A DNA stretch of 64,000 nt from an uncultured delta proteobacterium. GTDB taxonomy: Bacteria; Myxococcota_A; Polyangia; Polyangiales; Polyangiaceae. Where the stretch lies: assembly GCA_963763745.1 (NCBI GenBank), contig CAVXQJ010000016.1, positions 513,029 to 577,028 on the forward strand, given 5' to 3'. Each line of letters starts with the position of its first letter. Position 1 is the first letter of the stretch. The translations under genes were made by a program, and so were the position numbers. The notes below the pieces were generated by a model. It was not told where the DNA came from. It did no database searches and saw only the letters and a program-made list of their open reading frames with translations. Shown here piece by piece: positions 35,357 to 52,588 of this stretch.

Positions 35357-36769
<1,413 letters not shown>

Positions 36770-36773
36770 GACC

Positions 36774-37607
36774 TCATTGCTTCGTGAAGACGAGGGCTCG
36801 GCCGTCCGGCGCATAAAGCGTCACCGTCGTCGGCGTGGCTTGGTATGTCGTGTACGCGAGTGTGCCTGTGAACGGGCAGCTCTGCGTGAGCGTGATCGAT
36901 CCGGCGCTCGCGACGAACGACCCGTTCGCGCGGCCCGTGCTTCCATCGTTCCCCGCGTCGTCGATGTCGTTGTCGACGAGCGCGTACTTGCCCGCGGCGA
37001 CTTCGTTCGTGATGCAGTAGGTCGCGCCCGTGGGTCCGCTGCCGCTGTCTGCGCCCGCGTACGCGTACGCGGCCGTCACGACGTACGTGCCGTCGACGAC
37101 GAAGCCGCCGTCGACCGCCGGCATCGCACTCGCGACGAACACCTCCGCGACGCTCGCGCCGATCTGAACGACCGCGTTGCACGCCGTGGCGGCATCCGTG
37201 TGCGCGTCCTGCGATGCGTCCGGAGCCGCACACGTCCCATCTGTGCACGATGTCGCATGCGGACAGACGACGCCGCACCCTCCGCAGTTGAACGAGTCGG
37301 CTTGCAAGTTCGCGCAGAACGTTGCGCCCGTTGTGCCACATGCCGTCGGGCTGGTGGGCGGACAGTCTTCGCACGTCGAGCTCTGACACAATTGGTTCGG
37401 AGCGCACGCAAGGCCGCATCCACCACAGTTGTCTCGATCGCTCGCCGTGTCGACGCACTGCCCATTGCACAGACCCACGCCCGCGTCGCAGGCGTTATCG
37501 GTGTACTCGACGTCGTACGTTCGGCACGCGCCGAAGATCGCGATCACGACGACGATGACCGAGCGACGCGACACGCTCGCAGCGTAACGCAAACGTGAGG
37601 TTGTCAC
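36774..37607 (-). CDS. Lipoprotein with Cys-rich NCGGCG repeats (paralogous architecture to 23013..24134)
   Basis: Lipobox IAIFGAC; DNCGGCGLACAPNQLC and FNCGGCGVVCPHATSC repeats. Confidence 0.6.
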   Translation of the reverse strand: MTTSRLRYAASVSRRSVIVVVIAIFGACRTYDVEYTDNACDAGVGLCNGQCVDTASDRDNCGGCGLACAPNQLCQSSTCEDCPPTSPTACGTTGATFCANLQADSFNCGGCGVVCPHATSCTDGTCAAPDASQDAHTDAATACNAVVQIGASVAEVFVASAMPAVDGGFVVDGTYVVTAAYAYAGADSGSGPTGATYCITNEVAAGKYALVDNDIDDAGNDGSTGRANGSFVASAGSITLTQSCPFTGTLAYTTYQATPTTVTLYAPDGRALVFTKQ

Positions 37608-37696: not shown

Positions 37697-37712
37697 TGGC
37701 ACGTCGCTCGCA
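37697..37712 (+). promoter_or_regulatory. Candidate sigma-54 (-24/-12) promoter upstream of gspC (approximate)
   Basis: TGGCAC-gtcgc-TCGCA: GG and GC dinucleotides separated by 10 nt as in the TGGCAC-N5-TTGCA consensus; about 20 nt upstream of the gspC ATG; a sigma-54 activator is encoded 1 kb upstream. Confidence 0.35.
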
Positions 37713-37731: not shown

Positions 37732-38694
37732 ATGGCCACGCCGTTCGATCAACTCCTCAAACGCCACTTTTGGGCGCCCACGCTCGCGCTGACCTCGGTC
37801 GCCGCGTTCTTCGGCGCTCGTGGCGTGGGTAACCTCTTCGGCGCGAGCCTCGGCGCGGACGACAAGCAACTCTCCGCGCCGCCGATGGCGACGAAGGCCG
37901 CACCCGCCTCGTCGAATGCAACGCAAAAGGCGACGAGCGCCGATCCGATCCTCGCGCGCAACCCGTTCGATTCGGTGACGGGACCGCTCCTTCGTGGCGT
38001 CGGCGACGACAACGCGATCGCAGTCCCCGTGGACATGAGCGATCCGACGAACGCGCCCACGTGCGACGGCGTGAAGGTCTTGATCATCGCCGCCTCGTCG
38101 GATCCGGATTGGTCGTTCGTCGCGCTGCAGGCCCCGGGCGATACGAAGAGCGTGCTTCGCCGTCGTGGCGGTGACTTCGCCGGTAAAGAGGTGAAGTTCG
38201 TCGGTTGGGATCGCGTGTGGCTCTCGGGTGGCGGTCAGCTCTGCCAAGCTTCGATGTTCAATCCGCAGGGCCCGCCTCCGACGACGCCCGTCGCGAGCGT
38301 CGCGCAACCTCCCCCCGCGGGCGGCGCGGGCGCCGTTCCGGACGACATCAAAAAAGGAATCGTTCGCATCAGCGCGACGGAGTTCAACATCGACCGCGGC
38401 ATCGTCGACAAGATCCTCGAGAACCAAGCCGAGCTGATGAAGCAGGCGCGCATCGTTCCCGAGCAAGAGAACGGCAAGGTCGTTGGCATTCGCCTCTTCG
38501 GCGTCCGCAACGACACGCTCCTCGGCGCGCTCGGAATGGAAAACGGCGATCGCCTTCAATCGATCAACGGATTCGACATGACCTCGCCCGAAAAAGCGCT
38601 CGAAGCCTACGCGCGACTTCGCACCGCCGATCACATGACGGTCGCGATCAACCGCAAAGGCTCCAACACGAACCTGGATTACAACATCAAATGA
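37732..38694 (+). CDS. gspC: Type II secretion system protein C (N-terminal TM, C-terminal PDZ)
   Basis: TM helix then C-terminal PDZ-like VVGIRLFGVRNDTLLGALGMENGDRLQSINGFDM; first gene of T2SS operon. Confidence 0.7.
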   Translation: MATPFDQLLKRHFWAPTLALTSVAAFFGARGVGNLFGASLGADDKQLSAPPMATKAAPASSNATQKATSADPILARNPFDSVTGPLLRGVGDDNAIAVPVDMSDPTNAPTCDGVKVLIIAASSDPDWSFVALQAPGDTKSVLRRRGGDFAGKEVKFVGWDRVWLSGGGQLCQASMFNPQGPPPTTPVASVAQPPPAGGAGAVPDDIKKGIVRISATEFNIDRGIVDKILENQAELMKQARIVPEQENGKVVGIRLFGVRNDTLLGALGMENGDRLQSINGFDMTSPEKALEAYARLRTADHMTVAINRKGSNTNLDYNIK

Positions 38695-38942
38695 ATCCCG
38701 AGACCCCGCTCCTCAAACAGACTCTTCGCACGACGGCCCTCATGGTCGTTCCCGTCGCGGCGTTTCTCGCGATCTTGAGCGCCGTCGCGCTCTTCGCCGT
38801 TCCGTCGTCTTCTCCGAGCGGCGCGACCAAGGAAGAGCGCGTCGTCACCGCGGGCGACAAGTCCGGCGATCAAGCGACGACGCCAGTCGCCAACCCGCGC
38901 ATCCCCGGCGCTCGCGCGACCGTCAAACCGAACAAGAACTGA
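38691..38942 (+). CDS. 83-aa single-pass membrane protein inserted between gspC and gspD
   Basis: ATG overlaps gspC stop (ATGA); MNPETPLLKQTLRTTALMVVPVAAFLAILSAVALFAVPSSS...; ends 2 nt before gspD start; last 83 codons of ORF 38205..38942. Confidence 0.5.
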   Translation: MNPETPLLKQTLRTTALMVVPVAAFLAILSAVALFAVPSSSPSGATKEERVVTAGDKSGDQATTPVANPRIPGARATVKPNKN

Positions 38943-38944
38943 TC

Positions 38945-41492
38945 ATGCGCGCATCCACGCTTTCGCTCGTCGCCGTCACCGCGCTCGTGAGTGCGTATTC
39001 GACCGTGCTCTTCGCGCAGCGCACGATCCAGCGCGTGCCAACCGTCGCCACGACCACCACGGCGGCGACTGGAAATCCGGGCGCTCCTCCAACGACGACC
39101 ACGCAAGGCGGCGGTGCTGGAGGCGGCGGTGCGGGAGGAGGAACGACGGGCAACACGACGCAACCGCAACAAGGCGGCGGCGCGGGTGGTGGTCAGCGCA
39201 CGACGGGCCCCGGCGGAAAAGCGCAAGGCGACACGGCGGCGCTCCCGCAATTCGAACAAGGCGTCGAATACGAACCGCGCGATCCCAATTACAAAGTATC
39301 GCTCTCGCTCGAAGACGCGGATCTCGCCGAGCTCGTACGCGTCATTGGCCAGCTCACGGGCAAACGCTTCATTTTTGGCGGCAAAGTCCGCAACATCAAA
39401 GCATCGATTTATGCGCCTCAAAAAGTGACGGTCGGCGAGGCGTATCAAGCGTTCTTGTCGATCCTCGAGACGAACGGGCTCACCGTCGTTCCGCACGGGC
39501 GCTTCCTGAAGATCGTCGAGACGGGCGGCATCGCGACGCAAGCCACGCCGACGTACAACGCGGGACAAGCCGCGCCCGGCGAAGATCGCTACGTGACGCG
39601 CATGCTCCGTTTGCAGCACGCGCCCGCCGACGAGATCGGCAACGTGCTCGGTCACTTCAAATCGAAGGACGGCGACATCACAGTTAGCGGCCTCCGGCAA
39701 CTTGCTCATCATCACGGACACGGGCGCCAACATTCGCCGCATGATGCAGATCGTCGAGGAGATCGACGTGGGCGCGGCGGGCGACCAAATGTGGATCGAG
39801 CCGATCCACTACGCGTCTGCGGCGGAGATCGCGTCGCGCATCAACGAGCTCTTCGAGCTCAAAGGCGGCGGCGAGAAGGGCAAAGGCGGCGGCGGTGGCG
39901 TCGGCGATTTGCACGTGACGAAGGTCGTCGCCGACGAACGCTCGAACTCGGTCATCATCGTGTCGACGGAGCGCGCTTACATGCGCATCCTCGAGTTCAT
40001 CAAGCGACTCGACGTGCCGCAAACGGGCGAGGGCGAGATTCACGTTCTCCCGCTGCAGCACGCGGACGCCGTCGAGCTCACGAAGACGCTCAACGAGCTC
40101 GTGCAAGGATCGAACACGGCCGCCGGCGGCGCGGGCAGGCCAGGCGCGGGGAAGGACTCGGCGCCCGTCCTCACGCAAGTCTTCGAGGGCGGCATCAAGC
40201 TCAGCGCCGACAAGGCGACGAACTCGATCGTCATCACGTCGTCGCTGCGCGATTTCGCGTCGCTCCGCGCGGTCGTCGATCGCCTCGATCAAGCGCGCCG
40301 TCAGGTCTTCATCGAAGCCGTCATCATGGATCTCTCGGTGACGCGCTCGACGCAGCTCGGTTTGAATTTTCACGGCGGCGGTTTGAGCGATCTCGGCATC
40401 GGCGGCGGACAGTCGCTTCTCTTCGGCGGTCTCAATCCGCTCGAGACGGTGAGCCCGCTCGGATCCGATCCGTCGATCCTCCAAGGTCTCGCGCTCGGCT
40501 TGCGCGGACCTGGCATCCCCGGAACGGAGAGCGCGAACGTGACGGGACAAACGATTCCCGCGTTCGGCGTGATCCTTCAAGCGCTCACGACGGCGGGCGA
40601 CACCGACGTCCTCTCGACGCCGCACATCCTCGCGACCGACAACATCAAAGCGGAGATCAACGTCGGACAGAACATCCCGCTTCAAACGAACATCGGCGGA
40701 CTGCCTCCGACGGGCGGCGCGGGCGGCTCGACGGCGCTGCCGACGGGCTTCGGTTTCGGCTTCGGCGCTTCGCCCGCGCGCCAAGACGTCGGCACCAAGA
40801 TCACGATCACGCCGCACTTGAACGAATCGAACGAAGTGCGTTTGGAGCTCGCGGAAGAAATCAGCGAAGCAGGCGACGCGATCGGCCAGCTCGGCGTCGT
40901 CCCGATCACGAAGCGCACGGCGAACACGCAGCTCGTCGTGAAAGATCAGCAGACCGTCGTCATCGGCGGGCTGATGCGCAATCGCCTCGCGCACCAAGAG
41001 ACGAAGATCCCGATCCTCGGCGACATCCCGCTGCTCGGCATCCTCTTCCGTCAGACGACGAACACCGTTCAGAAGTCGAATCTGCTCCTCGTGCTCACGC
41101 CGTACATCATTCGCGAGCAGGCGGATTTGCGCGCGATCTTCGAGCGCAAGATGCAAGAGCGCCAGGAGTTCCTCGATCGCTACTTCGTATTCTCCGAAGA
41201 TCACGATTACAAACCAGTCAAAGACTATTCGCGCACGAACGGGCTCCTCGAGGACATCAAAGCCACGTATCGCGCAGTCGACGAGCGCGAGCGCATCGAA
41301 GAGATCATGCGCCCGCGCGACGTCATCGGACACGCGCCGGGCGAGCCTCTCGATCTTCCGTCGCAAATGCGCTCCGGCGCCGGCGGCGGGACGACATCCA
41401 CCGAAGCGAAGCCGCCGACGGAGCAAGCGGGCAAGCCGGCCAACATCACGGTGACGCCGCCCGTTCGCAACATCGAGCGCATGGAGAAGTGA
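38945..41492 (+). CDS. gspD: Type II secretion system secretin GspD, interrupted by an apparent +1 frameshift near 39684-39692
   Basis: Signal peptide, N0-N3 domains (frame of ORF 38945..) then NLLIITDTGANIRRM and secretin domain (frame of ORF 39702..41492); removing one G from agcggcc reads DITVSASGNLLIITD. Confidence 0.8.
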
Positions 41493-43341
41493 TGCGCGAA
41501 GAACGATTCCTCGGAGAGCTGCTCGTTCGCCGCGGTCTCGTCGCCGAGGATCGCCTCGAGCCGCTTTACGCAGTTCAAAAAGAGCGCGGCGTGGCGCTGA
41601 CCGATTTGCTCGTGAACCAGCAGCTCGTCGATCCCGAGGCGGTCGCGCGCGCGGTCGCCGACGAAGCACAGCTCGCGGTCGTCCTCACGATCGATCCGGA
41701 GAAAATCCCAAACGCGATCGCGACGCGCACGCCCATCACGTTCGCGAAGAACCATCGGCTCCTCGCGTTCGCCGAGGACGATCAGTTCGTCCACGTGTAT
41801 TGCGCCGATCCGTTCGATACCGCGCCGCTCGACGATTTGCGATTGCTCTTCGGCAAGCCGGTCGAGTGCATCGTCGCGCCCGCCGAGAAGATCGTCGACG
41901 CCATCAACCGCGTCTTCGAGCGCGAAGCAGGCGGCGGCGAGCTCGAGACCGAAGCCGGCGAGGTGCACGAAGAAGAGGGCGGCGGAGACATCCTCGACTC
42001 TGACGACGAAGCGCCCGTCATTCGCTGGGTGAACTCCCTCTTTTTGCACGCGATGAAAGAGCGCGCGAGCGACATTCACATCGAGCCCGAAGAGAAGAGG
42101 TCATCGTTCGATATCGCATCGACGGCGAGCTCTACGTCGCGCGTCGCGCGCCGCGAAACTTCATGAACGCGATCATCTCGCGCGTGAAGATCGAGAGCGC
42201 GCTCAACATCGCAGAGAAGCGCTTGCCGCAAGACGGACGCATCACGAAGAAGATCGCCGGCAAGGGATTCGACATCCGCGTCTCGACCATCCCGACGAGC
42301 CGCGGATACGAGCGCATCGTCATGCGTCTCTTGAACAAGTCGAGCGTGCTCCTCGACCTCAGCGATCTCGGGTTCTCGCCGCGCGACTACGCGCTGATGG
42401 ACACCCTCATCCGCAGGCCCGACGGCATCATCCTCGTCACGGGCCCCACCGGCTCCGGAAAGACGACGACGCTCTACGCGTGCATCAACCGCATCAACGA
42501 TCCGAACATCAACATCCTCACCGCGGAGGACCCGGTCGAGTACGAGATCTCGGGTATCCACCAGGTGCACGTTCAACCGAAGATCGGTTTGACGTTCGCG
42601 AGCGCGCTCCGCGCGTTCTTGCGCCAAGACCCCGACGTCGTCATGGTCGGCGAGATCCGCGACAAGGAAACCGTCGACATCGCGATCAACGCGTCGCTCA
42701 CCGGTCACCTCGTGCTCTCCACGATCCACACGAACGACGCGGCGGGCGCCATCACGCGCATGATCGACATGGGCGTCGAGCCCTTCTTGATCCGTTCGAG
42801 CGTGATCGGGATTCTCGCGCAGCGCCTCGTGCGCGTTCTTTGTCCGCATTGCAAAGAGCCTTACGAGGCTCTCGACTCGGAGCTCGAAGAGCTCGGGCTC
42901 GGGCAAGATCGCATCGCGTGGCGCGGGCGTCGCCGCACGCGCGAGGGCACGGGCTACTACCCGCGCGGCACGCCCGATCGCGACGTGCTCGATCTCGAGC
43001 GCGGCGTGCGTCCGATGTTTTTTCGCGCGCGCGGCTGCGAGAAATGCGCGAACACCGGTTTTTCCGGGCGACGCGGCATTTACGAGTTGCTCTTGATCGA
43101 CGACCAAGTCGGACCGCTCGTTCTCCGCAGCGCCGACGCGCAAGCGATCAAACGCGCCGCGCAAGACCAAGGCATGGACACGCTCCGCGACGACGGCGCG
43201 CGCAAAGTGCTCGCGGGTCTGACGACGGTCGAAGAGGTCCTCGCCGCGAAGGGCGAAGACGTCGATCCCATGACACCGTCATCCACCTCGACTCCACCCG
43301 TGTCCGCGCGTACCGTCGCGCCAGTCACTGCGCGGGAGTAA
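41492..43341 (+). CDS. gspE: Type II secretion ATPase GspE, interrupted by an apparent -1 frameshift near 42095-42102
   Basis: N1E domain, then [11 protein letters not shown] (frame 1) continues as (R/E)[12 protein letters not shown]...NAIISRVK in frame of ORF 42163..43341; Walker [12 protein letters not shown]; tetracysteine CPHC...CEKC. Confidence 0.8.
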
Positions 43342-43344
43342 GAG

Positions 43345-44775
43345 ATGGCGGTCTTCGAATACCGCGGAGTCCTCGTCGCGAGCGGGAAGCAGGTGCACGG
43401 CTTCCGCGACGCCGACAACGCACGCGTCTTGCGCTCGGCGCTGAAGCGCGAAGGCGTTCTCCTCACGAACGCGACCGAAGACACCAAAGCGCAAGGCCAG
43501 AAGGCTTCGCGCAACATCGATTTCGCTCGGGTTCTTCCGCCGCATCGGCGTCGGCGATGTCGCGATGATGACGCGCCAGCTCGCGACGCTCGTCGGCGCG
43601 GGCATCCCGCTCGTCGAAGCCGTCTCGGCGCTCGTCGATGCAAATGGAGAAGCCCGAGCTCCAGCGCGTGCTCACGCAGGTGCGCGATCGATTGAACGAA
43701 GGTCAGTCGCTCGCGAAGGCGCTCGAAGCGCACCCCAAAGTGTTTCCGGCGCTCTACGTGAACATGGTCGCCGCCGGCGAAGCATCGGGAACGCTCGAGC
43801 AAGTGCTCATGCGTCTCGCGGACTTCCAAGAGAATCAAGCGAAGCTGCGCGGCAAAGTCTCCGCTGCGCTCGCTTATCCCGTTTTGATGATCATCATCGG
43901 CACCGCGCTCATCAGCGTGATGATGGTCGCCGTCGTGCCGAAGGTGACATCCATCTTCGCGAGCCTCGGCCAAGCGCTGCCTTGGTACACGGCGACGCTC
44001 ATCTTCATCTCCGACGTGGTCAGCTCGAACGAGACCGTCGGATTCGTGCTCACGCTCGGCACGCTCACGTCGATGCGCAAAGCGATGACGAAGCCGGCGA
44101 CGAAGAGCGGCGCGGAAGACACGCAGCAAAACACGGCAAGCCTCGTGTGGGTCGTCGTGACGGCGGTGTTCGCACTCACGCTCATCCTCGCCGCGTTCGC
44201 GGTGTCGTCGCTCGTCGCTTATGCGATCGGCATCGGTCTCGGAATCTTCGGCGGCGTCTTCTTGTCGCGCTTCGTCGCGTTTCTCGGAAAGCCCGAGGGG
44301 CGTTTGTGGCGCGACACGATGATCCTCGAAATCGCCGCTCATCGGCCCGCTCGCGCGCATGCTCGCGGTCGCGCGCTTCTCTCGCACGCTCGCGACGCTC
44401 CTTCAAAGCGGCGTGCCGCTCCTCAAGGCGATGGAGATCGTGAAGAACGTCCTCGACAACGCGAAGCTCGAGAAGGTCGTCGAGACCGCGGCCGGATCGA
44501 TCCGCGAAGGCGAGTCGATCGCCGCGCCGCTCAAACGAAGCGGAGATTTCCCGCCGATCGTGACGCACATGATCGCCGTCGGCGAGAAGAGCGGCGAGCT
44601 CGAGACGATGCTCGAGAACGTCGCCAAGGCCTACGACACGCAAGTCGACACGCGCGTTCAGGCGCTGACGAGCTTGCTCGAGCCGCTCATCATCGTCTTT
44701 CTCGGCGGCGCCGTCGGCTTCATCGCGTTTTCGATTTTGATGCCGCTCATCCAGATGAACGACTTCGTGCAGTAA
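43345..44775 (+). CDS. gspF: Type II secretion inner-membrane platform protein GspF, interrupted by three apparent +1 frameshifts (about 43526-43533, 43637-43641, 44326-44332)
   Basis: Four collinear frame segments (ORFs 43345.., 43565.., 43638.., 44359..44775) each matching successive GspF regions, e.g. ITRQLATL and SPLIGPLARMLAVARFSRTLATLLQSGVPLL. Confidence 0.75.
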
Positions 44776-49434: not shown

Positions 49435-50952
49435 ATGGCCAGGTATCTCGGAATCGACATCGGCACGACGAGCGTGAAGGCGGCAGTGCTCCGCGTCGCG
49501 TATCGCAAGCTCGTGCTCGAAGGTCTCGGCTCCGCGCCCATTCCTCCGGACGGAGATCGCGCAGCGGCGATTCGCGAAGCGTCGCAGGCGGCGCTCGGTC
49601 AAGGCGCGGCCGACGGCGTCGCGACGGCCATCCCCGGAACCGAGATCACGCTCCGCACGGTGCGCATCCCCGAGAGCGCGCAGCGTCAGCTCGCCGAGGT
49701 CCTTCCGTTCGAGCTCGAGTCGCAGCTCCCGTTCGATCTCGACGACGCGATCCTCGATTACCGCGTCATCGAGGGTGCGACGAACGACGAAGGCCTCGCC
49801 GTTCTCAGCGCGGTCACGCGCGTCGATGACGCGCGCAAACGCGTCGATCTCGTGAAGAGCGCGCTCGGCACGGAGCCCGAGCGGCTCGGCGTGGGGCCGT
49901 TTCCGCTCGCGAACCTCGCGCCGTATGCGGCCGAGCTCCGCGCGGAAGGGACCGTTGCGCTGCTCGATCTCGGAACGAAGACGAGCGACCTCCTCTTCAT
50001 GCAAGGCGGCGAGCCCGTCTTCGCGCGCACGCTCTCGCTCGGCACCGAAGGTCTCCCACAGACGGCGGCGAGGCTCGCGCGCGAAATCCGTCTGTCGCTC
50101 GCCGCGTTCCGCGCGCAGGGCGGCGTGCTTCCGAACGAGATTTACCTGTGCGGCGGCGGCGCGTTCGTGTCGGGCGCCGAGTCGTTCCTCGCGGCGGAGC
50201 TCGAGCGACCCGTCGTGCGCATGCCTGCGCTCTCGATGGAGCTCGGCGAGCGCGTGGGTCGCATCGCGAACGACTTCCCGCTCTACGCAGTCTCGATCGG
50301 GCTGGCACTATCGCTCTCCTCGCGCGATGGCGGGCTCGACATGCGCAAAGGCCCGCTCGCGTACGAGCGCGGATACGGATGGATGCGCGATCGCATCCCC
50401 GCGCTCGTCGGTCTCGGCGCGGTGATCGCCGTGAGCTTCGTGTTCTCGTCGTGCACGGGCGTCTACGCGGCGTCGAAGGAGCGCACCACCCTCGAAGCGG
50501 CGCTCGGCAACGTGACGAAAGAAGTCTTCGGCGAAGAGACGACGAGCGCCGAGCACGCGACCGAGCTCCTCGCCGCGCAAAACGCGACGGAAGAAGATCC
50601 CCTCGCGCACGCCGACGCGTTCGACGTGATGGTGCGCCTCAGCGAGCACATCCCGCAATCGATGACGCACGACATCGAAGAGCTCGACGTGCAGAAGGGC
50701 CACATCGTCGTTCACGGCATCGTCGGCACGATCACCGAGGCGCAATCCATCGTGACGTCGCTCGCCACCGAGAAGTGCTTCTCCGACGTGAAGAACACGC
50801 GCATCAGCCAAGTCGTCGGAGGCGAGCGACAGAAATACGTGATCGAGTTCGACCTGAAGTGTCCGGAGGACGTGAAGGCGGTGAAGAAGAAGACGGACTC
50901 ATCGGCGTCCGGAAGCGCAGCGTCGAGCGCGACCAGCGCAGCGGGGAAATGA
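49435..50952 (+). CDS. gspL: Type II secretion protein GspL (cytoplasmic actin-like domain, TM, periplasmic domain)
   Basis: YLGIDIGTTSVKAAVL actin-like fold N-terminus, TM helix IPALVGLGAVIAVSFVF, periplasmic C-domain. Confidence 0.65.
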   Translation: MARYLGIDIGTTSVKAAVLRVAYRKLVLEGLGSAPIPPDGDRAAAIREASQAALGQGAADGVATAIPGTEITLRTVRIPESAQRQLAEVLPFELESQLPFDLDDAILDYRVIEGATNDEGLAVLSAVTRVDDARKRVDLVKSALGTEPERLGVGPFPLANLAPYAAELRAEGTVALLDLGTKTSDLLFMQGGEPVFARTLSLGTEGLPQTAARLAREIRLSLAAFRAQGGVLPNEIYLCGGGAFVSGAESFLAAELERPVVRMPALSMELGERVGRIANDFPLYAVSIGLALSLSSRDGGLDMRKGPLAYERGYGWMRDRIPALVGLGAVIAVSFVFSSCTGVYAASKERTTLEAALGNVTKEVFGEETTSAEHATELLAAQNATEEDPLAHADAFDVMVRLSEHIPQSMTHDIEELDVQKGHIVVHGIVGTITEAQSIVTSLATEKCFSDVKNTRISQVVGGERQKYVIEFDLKCPEDVKAVKKKTDSSASGSAASSATSAAGK

Positions 50953-51554
50953 TCATGGCGCAACGGAAACCCTTCTTCGAACGCTTCGGCCTCAACGCGC
51001 GCGAGCAGCGGCTCGCGCAGATCTTCGCCGTCGTCGCTGCGGGCATTCTTCTTCTCGGCGTGCCCATCGGACTCGAGTCGTGGGTCGCGTCGAAGCGCTC
51101 GGGCAACACGGAGCTCCGCGAGGCCATCGATGCGGTGCAAGCGTCGCGCGCGCAGATGCGCGCCTCGCAGTCGAAGCGTGACGCCATCACGAACCGCTAC
51201 GCGCGCAAAGCCCCCGAGCTCGGCGGCTACCTCGAGCAAATGGCGCGCAAACAAAAGCTCGAAGTGACCGACTCCGTCGACCGTCCGCCGCTCCCGATCG
51301 GCAAGCACTACACGGAGCGAAGCACCACGATCCACCTGAAAAAGGCTGGTTTGCTGTCGATCTCGAAATTCATGGAGTCGCTCGAGCAAGCGGGCACGCC
51401 CATCGCCATCAACCGCCTCAACTTGCGACGGCGCACGGGCGAGCAGGATTCGTACGACGTCGAGCTCGGCATCTCCGCCTACGATCGCAACGACAAGCCC
51501 AGCGCCGACGCGAAGGACGCGGGCGCGCGCGCACCGAAGGAGAGGAACAAGTGA
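50949..51554 (+). CDS. gspM: Type II secretion protein GspM-like
   Basis: Single TM (IFAVVAAGILLLGVPIGL) plus periplasmic domain; ATGA overlap with gspL and GTGA overlap with gspN. Confidence 0.55.
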   Translation: MIMAQRKPFFERFGLNAREQRLAQIFAVVAAGILLLGVPIGLESWVASKRSGNTELREAIDAVQASRAQMRASQSKRDAITNRYARKAPELGGYLEQMARKQKLEVTDSVDRPPLPIGKHYTERSTTIHLKKAGLLSISKFMESLEQAGTPIAINRLNLRRRTGEQDSYDVELGISAYDRNDKPSADAKDAGARAPKERNK

Positions 51555-52588
51555 ATCGGTGGAAGGAGCTCCTTCGCAAATACGGCAAGTGGGTTGCGTA
51601 CCCGCTCTTCTATTTGTTCATGTTCGTCCTCTGTCTTCGGCTCGTGTTTCCTTACGAGAAGGTGCGCGAGCGCATCGTCGCGAGCTTCAACTCGCAACAG
51701 CATCCCGGCCCCGGGCAGCAGCAGCTCTCGATCGACGAAGTCGGCGGGTGGTGGCTCACGGGCGTTCGCATCAAAGGCATTCGCATCGTGAGCGCGCCGA
51801 GCGAGCCGGGCGGCGCGCCGAGCGAGATGAAGATCGACGAAGCGCGCGCGAAGATCGGCGTGCTCTCGGCGATGATCGGTCACACCGACGTGAGCTTTCA
51901 CATCGATGCATTCGGCGGCGAGATCGATGGCACGTTCGAAGACAGCGCGAAGGAGCGGAGCGTCGAAGCGGAGCTCGAGGGCGTCGACTTCACGCAGATC
52001 AACGCGCTCACCGATTTGCTCGGCTTGCCCGTCGAGGGCCACGCGAAGGGAAAGCTCCTGCTCGTGATGCCCGAGCAGAAAGCATCGAAGGGAAGCGGGA
52101 CCCTCACGCTCGACGTGGCCGACGTCGCGATCGGCGACGGCAAAGCGAAGCTGAAGAACGCGCTCGACTGGCCGAAGCTCGCCGTCGGTCCGCTCTCGCT
52201 CACCGCGGAAGCGAAAGACGGCGTGCTGAAGATCACGAAGCTCTCGGCGGGCGGAAAAGATCTCGAGCTCTCGGGCGAGGGAAAAGTCCAGATGCGCGAT
52301 CTCGCCAGCGAGAGCACCGTCGACGTGAACATGAAGTTCAAGATCAACGACAGCTACCGGAGCAAGAGCAAGCTCACCGAGGCGCTCTTCGGCGCGGCCG
52401 GCTCGACCAAGGGTGGCGACGTCGATCGATTCGTGCCGAAGATGAAGAGCGCGCACCGCGCCGATGGGTTCTACGCATTTCGCTTGCAAGGTTTGCTCGG
52501 CAAGCTCGATCCGCAACCGAATCCTTCGTACGGCGGGCCGATCGCGCCCGAGCCGCGCGGCACGGCTCCACCGGATCAAGGTCCGTGA
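51551..52588 (+). CDS. gspN: Type II secretion protein GspN-like
   Basis: N-terminal TM (YPLFYLFMFVLCL) and about 300-aa periplasmic domain in the position and with the length of GspN. Confidence 0.55.
   Translation: MNRWKELLRKYGKWVAYPLFYLFMFVLCLRLVFPYEKVRERIVASFNSQQHPGPGQQQLSIDEVGGWWLTGVRIKGIRIVSAPSEPGGAPSEMKIDEARAKIGVLSAMIGHTDVSFHIDAFGGEIDGTFEDSAKERSVEAELEGVDFTQINALTDLLGLPVEGHAKGKLLLVMPEQKASKGSGTLTLDVADVAIGDGKAKLKNALDWPKLAVGPLSLTAEAKDGVLKITKLSAGGKDLELSGEGKVQMRDLASESTVDVNMKFKINDSYRSKSKLTEALFGAAGSTKGGDVDRFVPKMKSAHRADGFYAFRLQGLLGKLDPQPNPSYGGPIAPEPRGTAPPDQGP

Follow-up and report, generated by a model that had tools for sequence, protein, structure and literature searches.

What is encoded in the short interval that separates gspC from gspD, within the operon for a type II secretion system (T2SS) of an uncultured Polyangiaceae bacterium? 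The DNA analyzed here, which we call the window, is a stretch of 64,000 nucleotides (nt) of contig CAVXQJ010000016.1, in which a small open reading frame (ORF) of 83 codons is located between these two genes. An earlier note on this DNA had described it as an unannotated ORF with a single transmembrane (TM) segment, whose product could be a secretin pilotin, a GspB-like accessory factor, or a partner of GspC. We found that the small ORF is a genuine conserved gene. Its product, MNPETPLLKQTLRTTALMVVPVAAFLAILSAVALFAVPSSSPSGATKEERVVTAGDKSGDQATTPVANPRIPGARATVKPNKN, is here assigned, with a probability of about 0.5, to a bitopic accessory subunit that would pack through its TM helix on the inner-membrane platform of the secretion system, most likely on GspC.

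A conserved gene between gspC and gspD

The gene and its upstream junction were defined as follows.

38691..38942, + strand: small ORF (83 residues plus stop) for a predicted bitopic inner-membrane protein with no family name, supported by third-position GC, homologues, synteny, and purifying selection on its core.
38691..38694, + strand: ATGA overlap between the start of the small ORF and the stop of gspC, a geometry that is compatible with termination-reinitiation coupling and is shared by some of the related loci.

The ATG at 38691 is embedded in the sequence ATC AAA TGA, whose last triplet (38692-38694) is the gspC stop codon. The small ORF ends with a TGA at 38940-38942, and the ATG of gspD follows at 38945 after a gap of 2 nt; the coordinates given previously for this overlap and gap were exact. 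No obvious Shine-Dalgarno sequence was seen in the window ahead of the start of the small ORF or that of gspD. Co-translation with the secretin had been proposed from this arrangement, and the tight packing on both gspC and gspD is indeed compatible with coupling, but tight junctions are not universal among the related loci described below. The junction with gspC is an ATGA or GTGA overlap in 10 of the 19 listed loci, gaps of 10–83 nt also occur, and the distance to gspD ranges from −4 to +86 nt.

The length of the ORF is unremarkable in a window of 66% GC, which contains dozens of spurious ORFs of similar size in all frames. Its GC content at codon positions 1, 2, and 3 was 0.62, 0.55, and 0.81, respectively, and the corresponding values were 0.64, 0.49, and 0.80 for gspC and 0.64, 0.44, and 0.84 for gspD. 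The highest third-position GC (GC3) moves into the frame of the small ORF exactly over 38700-38880. Purifying selection was detected on this frame, as the ratio of nonsynonymous to synonymous substitution rates (dN/dS) for the 33-codon core (PLL...VP) was 0.09–0.29 in pairwise Nei–Gojobori comparisons of seven close loci, and the mean pairwise diversity of the core at codon positions 1, 2, and 3 was 0.26, 0.12, and 0.44. The frame-specific GC3, the homologues, the synteny, the dN/dS values, and the codon-position pattern together indicate that the small ORF is coding. The same data refute the weakest explanation, a chance ORF that is no gene at all, which the abundance of spurious ORFs of comparable size in this GC-rich DNA might have suggested and to which we give next to no chance.

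The ORF in the window is intact and of full length relative to its homologues. An identical 83-residue protein (P0001, encoded on a 607-kb contig) is already present in the NCBI/ENA protein sets, and every related locus that was retrieved with gene calls has a homologue among those calls, the public label being “hypothetical protein”. The earlier note was hence right in taking the ORF as a real, single-TM gene linked to the T2SS, as borne out by the coding evidence and the synteny; it was mistaken in calling it unannotated and easily missed by gene callers, since public data already hold the call.

A predicted membrane helix under selection

Three parts were distinguished in the 83-residue product.

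38691..38732, + strand: residues 1-14, short N-terminus, predicted to be cytoplasmic from flank charge, with the juxtamembrane motif L7-L8-[KR]9-x-T11-L12, of which L7, T11, and L12 are near-invariant in 131 family members.
38733..38801, + strand: residues 15-37, predicted TM helix with M18, G/A27, L29, S/T30, V32, and A33, based on Kyte–Doolittle hydropathy, AlphaFold2, and conservation.
38802..38939, + strand: residues 38-83, predicted disordered and fast-evolving periplasmic tail, which ends in the basic patch RATVKPNKN, based on AlphaFold2 confidence, dN/dS, and composition.

When the family alignment was supplied to AlphaFold2, a single helix was predicted over residues 6-35, which comprises both the juxtamembrane segment and the TM segment, with a block-mean predicted local distance difference test score (pLDDT) of 84 for residues 11-20 and 92 for residues 21-30. 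The maximum of the Kyte–Doolittle hydropathy over 19 residues was 2.68 for the window protein and at least 2.1 in 131 of 131 members. The mean charge of the flanks in these members was strongly biased (K+R 2.04 and D+E 0.13 on the N-terminal side; K+R 0.95 and D+E 2.05 on the C-terminal side), so that the positive-inside rule predicts an N-in, C-out topology. The N-terminus would thus be cytoplasmic and the tail periplasmic, and the short cytoplasmic N-terminus and single TM helix described previously agree with the flank charge, the hydropathy, and the AlphaFold2 model. A cleavable signal peptide was ruled out as unlikely, because the hydrophobic stretch spans approximately 22–28 residues and is the most conserved portion of the protein. 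Features of a prepilin (type IV pseudopilin or Flp) were not found either, as there was no N_methyl match and no G/FTLxE motif visible in the sequence.

Near-invariant positions across the 131 members are L7, T11, L12, M18, L29, S/T30, V32, and A33, together with a G or A at positions 16 and 27. L7, T11, M18, L29, and A33 are separated by spacings of 4, 7, 11, and 4 residues, which places them on the same helical face with the small residues 16 and 27 and with S/T30. When conservation was analysed along the whole predicted helix (residues 6-35), it had a periodicity of 100 degrees, with p = 0.008 in a shuffling test.

The tail behaves differently from the core. Its pairwise dN/dS in the same seven loci was 0.24–1.7, its diversity was nearly equal at codon positions 1, 2, and 3 (0.49, 0.50, and 0.60), and its pLDDT was below 50 over residues 43-75. 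It comprises 46 residues in the window protein and varies from approximately 24 to approximately 50 residues across the family. By these measures, it is the helix that is under selection, rather than the tail. The description of the tail as Ser/Thr/Pro-rich holds insofar as Pro and Ser/Thr are present; however, it is richest in Ala (20%), Pro (14%), and Gly (13.5%), and contains charged residues in addition.

The extreme C-terminus of the tail has a composition of its own. A K or R terminates the protein in 89 of the 131 members (K 63, R 26), compared with a K+R share of approximately 10% for the remaining tail, and a terminal Ile is present in 13 of 131, compared with 1% Ile elsewhere in the tail. 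The terminal Ile is kept even where gspD lies 46–86 nt downstream. This basic/Ile patch (38916-38939 in the window; also in L001, L004, L007, L012, L016, L017, L021, and L027) is possibly an embedded ribosome-binding region, or a contact with peptidoglycan or protein. The separate idea that the tail end is a ligand for the PDZ-like region of GspC, prompted by the many members with a K/A/Q-Ile ending, is weak, since a C-terminal I, L, or F is found in only 17 of 131 members and the window copy ends with NKN.

Homologues, distribution, and loss

A single-sequence search retrieved 39 close homologues of 62–87 residues. The profile of this close family, when run against 1.84 billion representative proteins, gave only 10 clusters, with a repeat artefact (P0043) among them, while a profile of both subfamilies gave 376 clusters at 90% identity, 62–97 residues in length and all “hypothetical”. 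The named clusters among the 376 are all from metagenome-assembled genomes (MAGs) of Polyangiaceae or Myxococcota. The two subfamilies, the type of the window and a larger, diverged sister type, align on the common motif L-[LI]-[KR]-x-T-L-x-T-x-[GA]-x-M...[GA]-x-L-[ST]-x-V-A, which lies in one TM helix of proteins of 62–97 residues encoded between gspC and gspD. The window protein fits this motif with L7, L8, K9, T11, L12, T14, A16, M18, A27, L29, S30, V32, and A33, and overall identity to it drops to 20–32% within the family. In the sister subfamily (L012-L027, L031, and P0167-P0252), an M-V-[GS]-[AG]-C sequence occurs in the middle of the helix, where lipidation or a disulfide bond may occur.

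By using GspC as the anchor, 23 loci were collected from species-representative genomes with a GspC identity of 57–88%, all of them uncultured Polyangiaceae, Polyangiales, or “Myxococcales” MAGs. Among these and the loci retrieved by look-up, an ORF of 63–94 residues with one strongly hydrophobic segment was found in 21, always in the gspC–gspD interval, and the frame of its tail stays open in all 19 compared loci. In the long-read MAG locus L028, the motif is broken by a frameshift. Conservation, which the earlier note had proposed to check across Myxococcota, is established solely within a clade of uncultured Polyangiaceae-like MAGs, and one sub-clade has lost the gene. At least 2983 GspC homologues were counted against the 376 clusters of the small protein, so that the latter seems to be present in no more than a part of the GspC_delta-type systems.

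Three loci (L018, L011, and L010) are devoid of the small ORF and retain gspC and gspD. In L018, the stop of gspC overlaps the start of gspD directly (ATGA), and gspD is full-length (840 residues). L011 and L010 have no room for the small ORF, and their gspD runs off the retrieved DNA. These three form one clade nested among the ORF-bearing lineages on a neighbour-joining tree of GspC, which indicates a single secondary loss. The loss of the small ORF in a sub-clade that has kept gspC and gspD suggests that it is an accessory, dispensable part of the system.

No match above threshold was obtained in Pfam, NCBIfam, or PDB sequences for the window protein or for the family members, and literature searches turned up no account of a small ORF in the gspC–gspD interval. 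The gene therefore belongs to an uncharacterised and narrowly distributed family, though its kind is familiar, namely that of the lineage-specific accessory membrane proteins of T2SS operons.

Proposed role at the inner-membrane platform

The interpretation that we favour is as follows. The tight or overlapping junctions would keep the amount of the small protein at a roughly constant ratio to those of GspC and GspD. Its helix would then dock by lateral helix–helix packing onto the inner-membrane assembly platform and thereby stabilise or tune the GspC ring, through which the platform is joined to the N0 ring of the secretin. The tail would be at most a flexible spacer with a basic tip. The end of gspC is fused to the start of the small ORF, which makes GspC the most likely partner, with GspL, GspM, or GspF as alternatives. 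Among the options raised in the earlier note, a GspC partner stays the most plausible.

GspC (NF041515) resembles the small protein in being bitopic, with a short N-terminus that opens with LLK[RQ] and a TM segment containing VAAF. It differs in having approximately 280 periplasmic residues including a PDZ-like domain, none of which is present in the small protein. We also considered that the latter arose by partial duplication of the GspC N-terminus; LLK...VAAF aligns by eye and in hhalign, but the probability was 1.3% with an E-value of 0.04, and this idea was rejected.

Several observations weigh against an accessory subunit that packs on GspC. The similarity between the small protein and the GspC N-terminus is not significant by the above hhalign score and gives no clue to the partner. 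The GspC of the loci devoid of the small ORF has the same kind of N-terminal segment, so that nothing in GspC visibly depends on the small protein. The signal for a conserved helical face depends on the segment and the angle chosen, with p-values of 0.008–0.05 at 100 degrees and no significance at 102.9 degrees, and it is not significant over TM residues 14-37 alone (p = 0.12). The conserved basic/Ile C-terminus hints at a function of the tail that lies outside this model. Lastly, gspD, gspE, and gspF are frameshifted in the window; if these frameshifts are real, the system is inactive in this genome.

Alternative explanations

A tentative alternative is that the protein is an undescribed thirteenth structural component of a T2SS of the myxobacterial type. 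Its TM helix would then insert into the helix bundle of GspC (or of GspL, GspM, or GspF) and be needed for the coupling of the platform to the secretin, which would make it a new Polyangiaceae-restricted Gsp family, and the mid-helix Cys of the sister subfamily might be lipidated or form a disulfide bond. We regard this as possible but doubtful.

A second alternative is a small GspB-like scaffold, whose TM segment serves only as an anchor and whose tail contacts the N-terminal region of the secretin or peptidoglycan, similar to the polyampholyte extension at the C-terminus of OutB or to the GspB of E. coli K-12 that has no HR domain. OutB/GspB works through a conserved periplasmic HR domain, which binds the secretin N0 domain, and a peptidoglycan-binding C-terminal extension, while the tested function was retained when a cleavable signal peptide took the place of its TM segment (PMC9239104). 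The “remarkably small GspB” of E. coli K-12, a form that related enterobacteria share, has no HR domain, possesses a variable polyampholyte tail, and is paired with GspA (PMC9239104). The likeness to this small GspB is confined to the architecture, in that both are bitopic inner-membrane proteins encoded in a T2SS operon, with a short cytoplasmic end, one TM segment, and a variable, charged, unfolded tail, and both are accessory. The predicted single TM anchor (hydropathy maximum and N-in charge bias as above) is of the GspB type, and GspB/OutB/PulB of Dickeya and Klebsiella are likewise single-pass inner-membrane accessory proteins, which act together with the secretin and whose periplasmic part opens with a linker of variable length. 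The basic patch at the tail end, including the terminal Ile that persists far from gspD, would also fit a contact made by the tail. There is no detectable homology with the K-12 protein, the small protein is about half its size, and its gene lies between gspC and gspD instead of next to gspA. Selection on the small protein is concentrated on the TM helix, which is the reverse of the periplasmic part of GspB and the opposite of the pattern in OutB. A tail of such variable length is too short for an HR domain, is predicted to be disordered, and is unconstrained. Pfam and NCBIfam gave no match to enterobacterial GspB at E ≤ 0.1–1, and the search of 1.84 billion representatives gave only the narrow family of the small ORF. 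No GspA is encoded in the gsp operon itself, although the window was not systematically searched for gspA. A canonical GspB, as proposed previously, is accordingly not supported, since there is no HR domain, the tail is near-neutral with a pLDDT below 50, and neither T2SSB nor any other Pfam or NCBIfam family was matched. The reduced, scaffold-like form is unlikely.

Third, the protein could guard against secretin stress as a bitopic protein of the PspB/PspC kind, which senses or limits the mis-insertion of GspD into the inner membrane. PspB and PspC are likewise small and bitopic, reside in the inner membrane, and have a functional link to secretins. Mislocalised secretins induce Psp (PMC9239104). 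The gene of the secretin follows the small ORF directly and in tight linkage, and three members (L016, L017, and L021) gave matches of 15.7–21.6 bits to PF22571 (PspC/LiaF TM region), which lie below its gathering threshold of 27 bits. These three are related and diverged members, and with one hydrophobic helix the match is likely to be compositional. The window protein itself gave no PF22571 match, its gene belongs to a gsp and not a psp operon, and no PspA/PspF-type partner is evident in this operon. Such a guard is considered improbable.

Fourth, the small ORF could act as a translational-coupling cistron, where the transit of ribosomes and their termination beside the gspD start sets the output of GspD and the peptide itself is of little importance. 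This would fit the overlap with gspC, the stop 2 nt before gspD, and the lack of an obvious Shine-Dalgarno sequence at either start. It would also fit the location of the ORF end, which is always near the start of gspD, and a tail that is nearly unconstrained, yet open in all compared loci. Against it, the first approximately 40 codons are under purifying selection at the amino-acid level, with near-invariant residues despite 20–32% identity, and the geometry at both junctions is not conserved. Furthermore, the clade devoid of the small ORF couples gspC straight to gspD. We therefore hold this explanation to be very unlikely.

The last alternative is a secretin pilotin, that is, an outer-membrane lipoprotein like GspS or AspS that targets GspD to the outer membrane. 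Pilotins are lipoproteins that carry a lipobox Cys and bind the S domain of the secretin by means of a folded domain (PMC9239104). The resemblance to the pilotins GspS/PulS/OutS and AspS/ExeS is that of small proteins encoded near secretin genes, which they help; the small ORF adjoins gspD, and 82 of 131 members, in the sister subfamily, have a Cys whose context (V-[GS]-[AG]-C) resembles a lipobox. By contrast, the window protein and its whole subfamily, including the 39 close homologues, contain no Cys and have Pro-Val at that position, so that there is no lipobox. The Cys of the sister subfamily lies in the middle of a hydrophobic stretch of 26–28 residues, is followed by approximately 18 hydrophobic residues, and is not conserved, with W or S in its place in a few sequences. 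The conserved part is a membrane helix with a charge bias for an N-in anchor in the inner membrane, unlike a cleaved signal peptide, and the tail is unfolded. No match to a pilotin family in Pfam or NCBIfam was detected, nor was a folded pilotin-like periplasmic domain indicated by Pfam, NCBIfam, or PDB-sequence matches, with the tail pLDDT below 50. A lipoprotein or pilotin was hence rejected for the subfamily of the window, contrary to the first suggestion of the earlier note, and is highly improbable as an explanation.

The surrounding gsp operon

The accessory subunit proposed above would be expressed from an operon with the following parts and upstream neighbours.

35357..36769, + strand: NtrC-type sigma-54-dependent response regulator (Pfam Response_reg, Sigma54_activat, and HTH_8).
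37697..37712, + strand: sigma-54-type promoter-like element TGGCACGTCGCTCGCA (TGGCAC-N5-TCGCA), 20 nt upstream of the gspC ATG.
37732..38694, + strand: gspC of the GspC_delta type (320 residues; NF041515 score of 371 bits, cutoff 150), which has a PDZ-like region at its C-terminus (weak PDZ_2 match).
38945..41492, + strand: gspD secretin (N0, Secretin_N, and Secretin domains in Pfam), broken by a +1 single-base insertion near 39684-39686.
49435-50952: GspL-like gene (PilM_2 and T2SSL).
About 51030-51554: gene at the GspM position, with no family match.
51551-52588: GspN (TIGR04411).

The rest of the operon encodes GspE, GspF, GspG, and four more pseudopilins (H-K) in addition to the GspL-like protein, the protein at the GspM position, and GspN. 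As this set from GspC to GspN is encoded separately, the small ORF replaces no core subunit. Scans of the gspC–gspD interval revealed no terminator-like site or promoter on the + strand and no Rfam element.

The element TGGCACGTCGCTCGCA has 1 mismatch to TGGCAC-N5-TTGCW and is not significant window-wide. Of the 22 loci checked, 16 carry an exact TGGCAC-N5-T.GC sequence upstream of gspC, and variants with TGGCAT were seen by eye in 5 of the remaining 6. The NtrC-type regulator is a conserved neighbour upstream of gspC and is also present in L001, L002, L004, and L029. The conserved element together with the adjoining NtrC-type activator suggests that the whole T2SS operon is sigma-54-dependent, and the sequence at 37697-37712 is likely the promoter of the operon that begins with gspC, the small ORF, and gspD. 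A Cys-rich ORF of 277 residues (36774-37607, − strand) with a Stig1-like Pfam match (E = 1.8e-9) is located between the regulator gene and gspC. Since the distance from the regulator to gspC in L001, L002, and L004 is only approximately 140–170 nt, this Stig1-like gene is an insertion specific to the lineage of the window.

Five single-base indels were located in gspD, gspE, and gspF (window 38945-44772) by comparison with three related loci, at approximately 39685 (39684-39686), approximately 42095 (42093-42097), 43524, 43640, and approximately 44329 (44327-44330). One of them falls in gspD, one in gspE, and three in gspF, and none is inside a long homopolymer. The pieces of gspD were recovered by tblastn in frames 2 and 3, and DNA alignment placed a 1-nt insertion relative to L001 and L007; the gspD homologues are single ORFs of 840–871 residues. 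The genes comparable with relatives over 27.6–38.9 kb are all intact, and the same holds for gspG and the pair of pseudopilin genes behind it. The indel cluster may stem from errors in the consensus of an assembled metagenome, at its most conserved genes, or from a genuine inactivation of the T2SS by recent pseudogenisation.

Two further observations concern the direct neighbours of the small ORF. The membrane segment of GspC (residues 14-40; window 37732-37860) is only marginally hydrophobic and contains Arg30 and Asn34 (FFGARGVGNLFG), which is unusual for a TM anchor. Both residues are invariant in the four closest aligned sequences, and diverged lineages have D-A-Q or N-A-K. In GspD, a low-complexity stretch of approximately 75 residues rich in Gly, Thr, Ala, and Pro (TTTTAATGNPGAPPTTTTQGGGAGGGGAGGG...) lies between the signal peptide and N0 (residues ~30-105; window ~39030-39260). 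The GspD of relatives is variable in the same region, where the tblastn alignment to the N-terminus often begins only near residue 90–107.

Significance

The T2SS is usually treated as a fixed set of 12–15 Gsp proteins, which was defined in gamma-proteobacteria. The accessory factors GspA, GspB, GspS, and GspN vary by lineage, and it is there that assembly strategies diverge. The practical value of the present finding is modest, as the hosts are uncultured, the family is narrow, and its function is inferred; a family model would nevertheless replace the label “hypothetical protein” in hundreds of MAGs. For the Polyangiaceae, this micro-protein is a candidate for joining or stabilising the junction between GspC and the secretin in a system without a recognisable pilotin or GspB, and it shows that the selected part of such small proteins can be the membrane helix itself.

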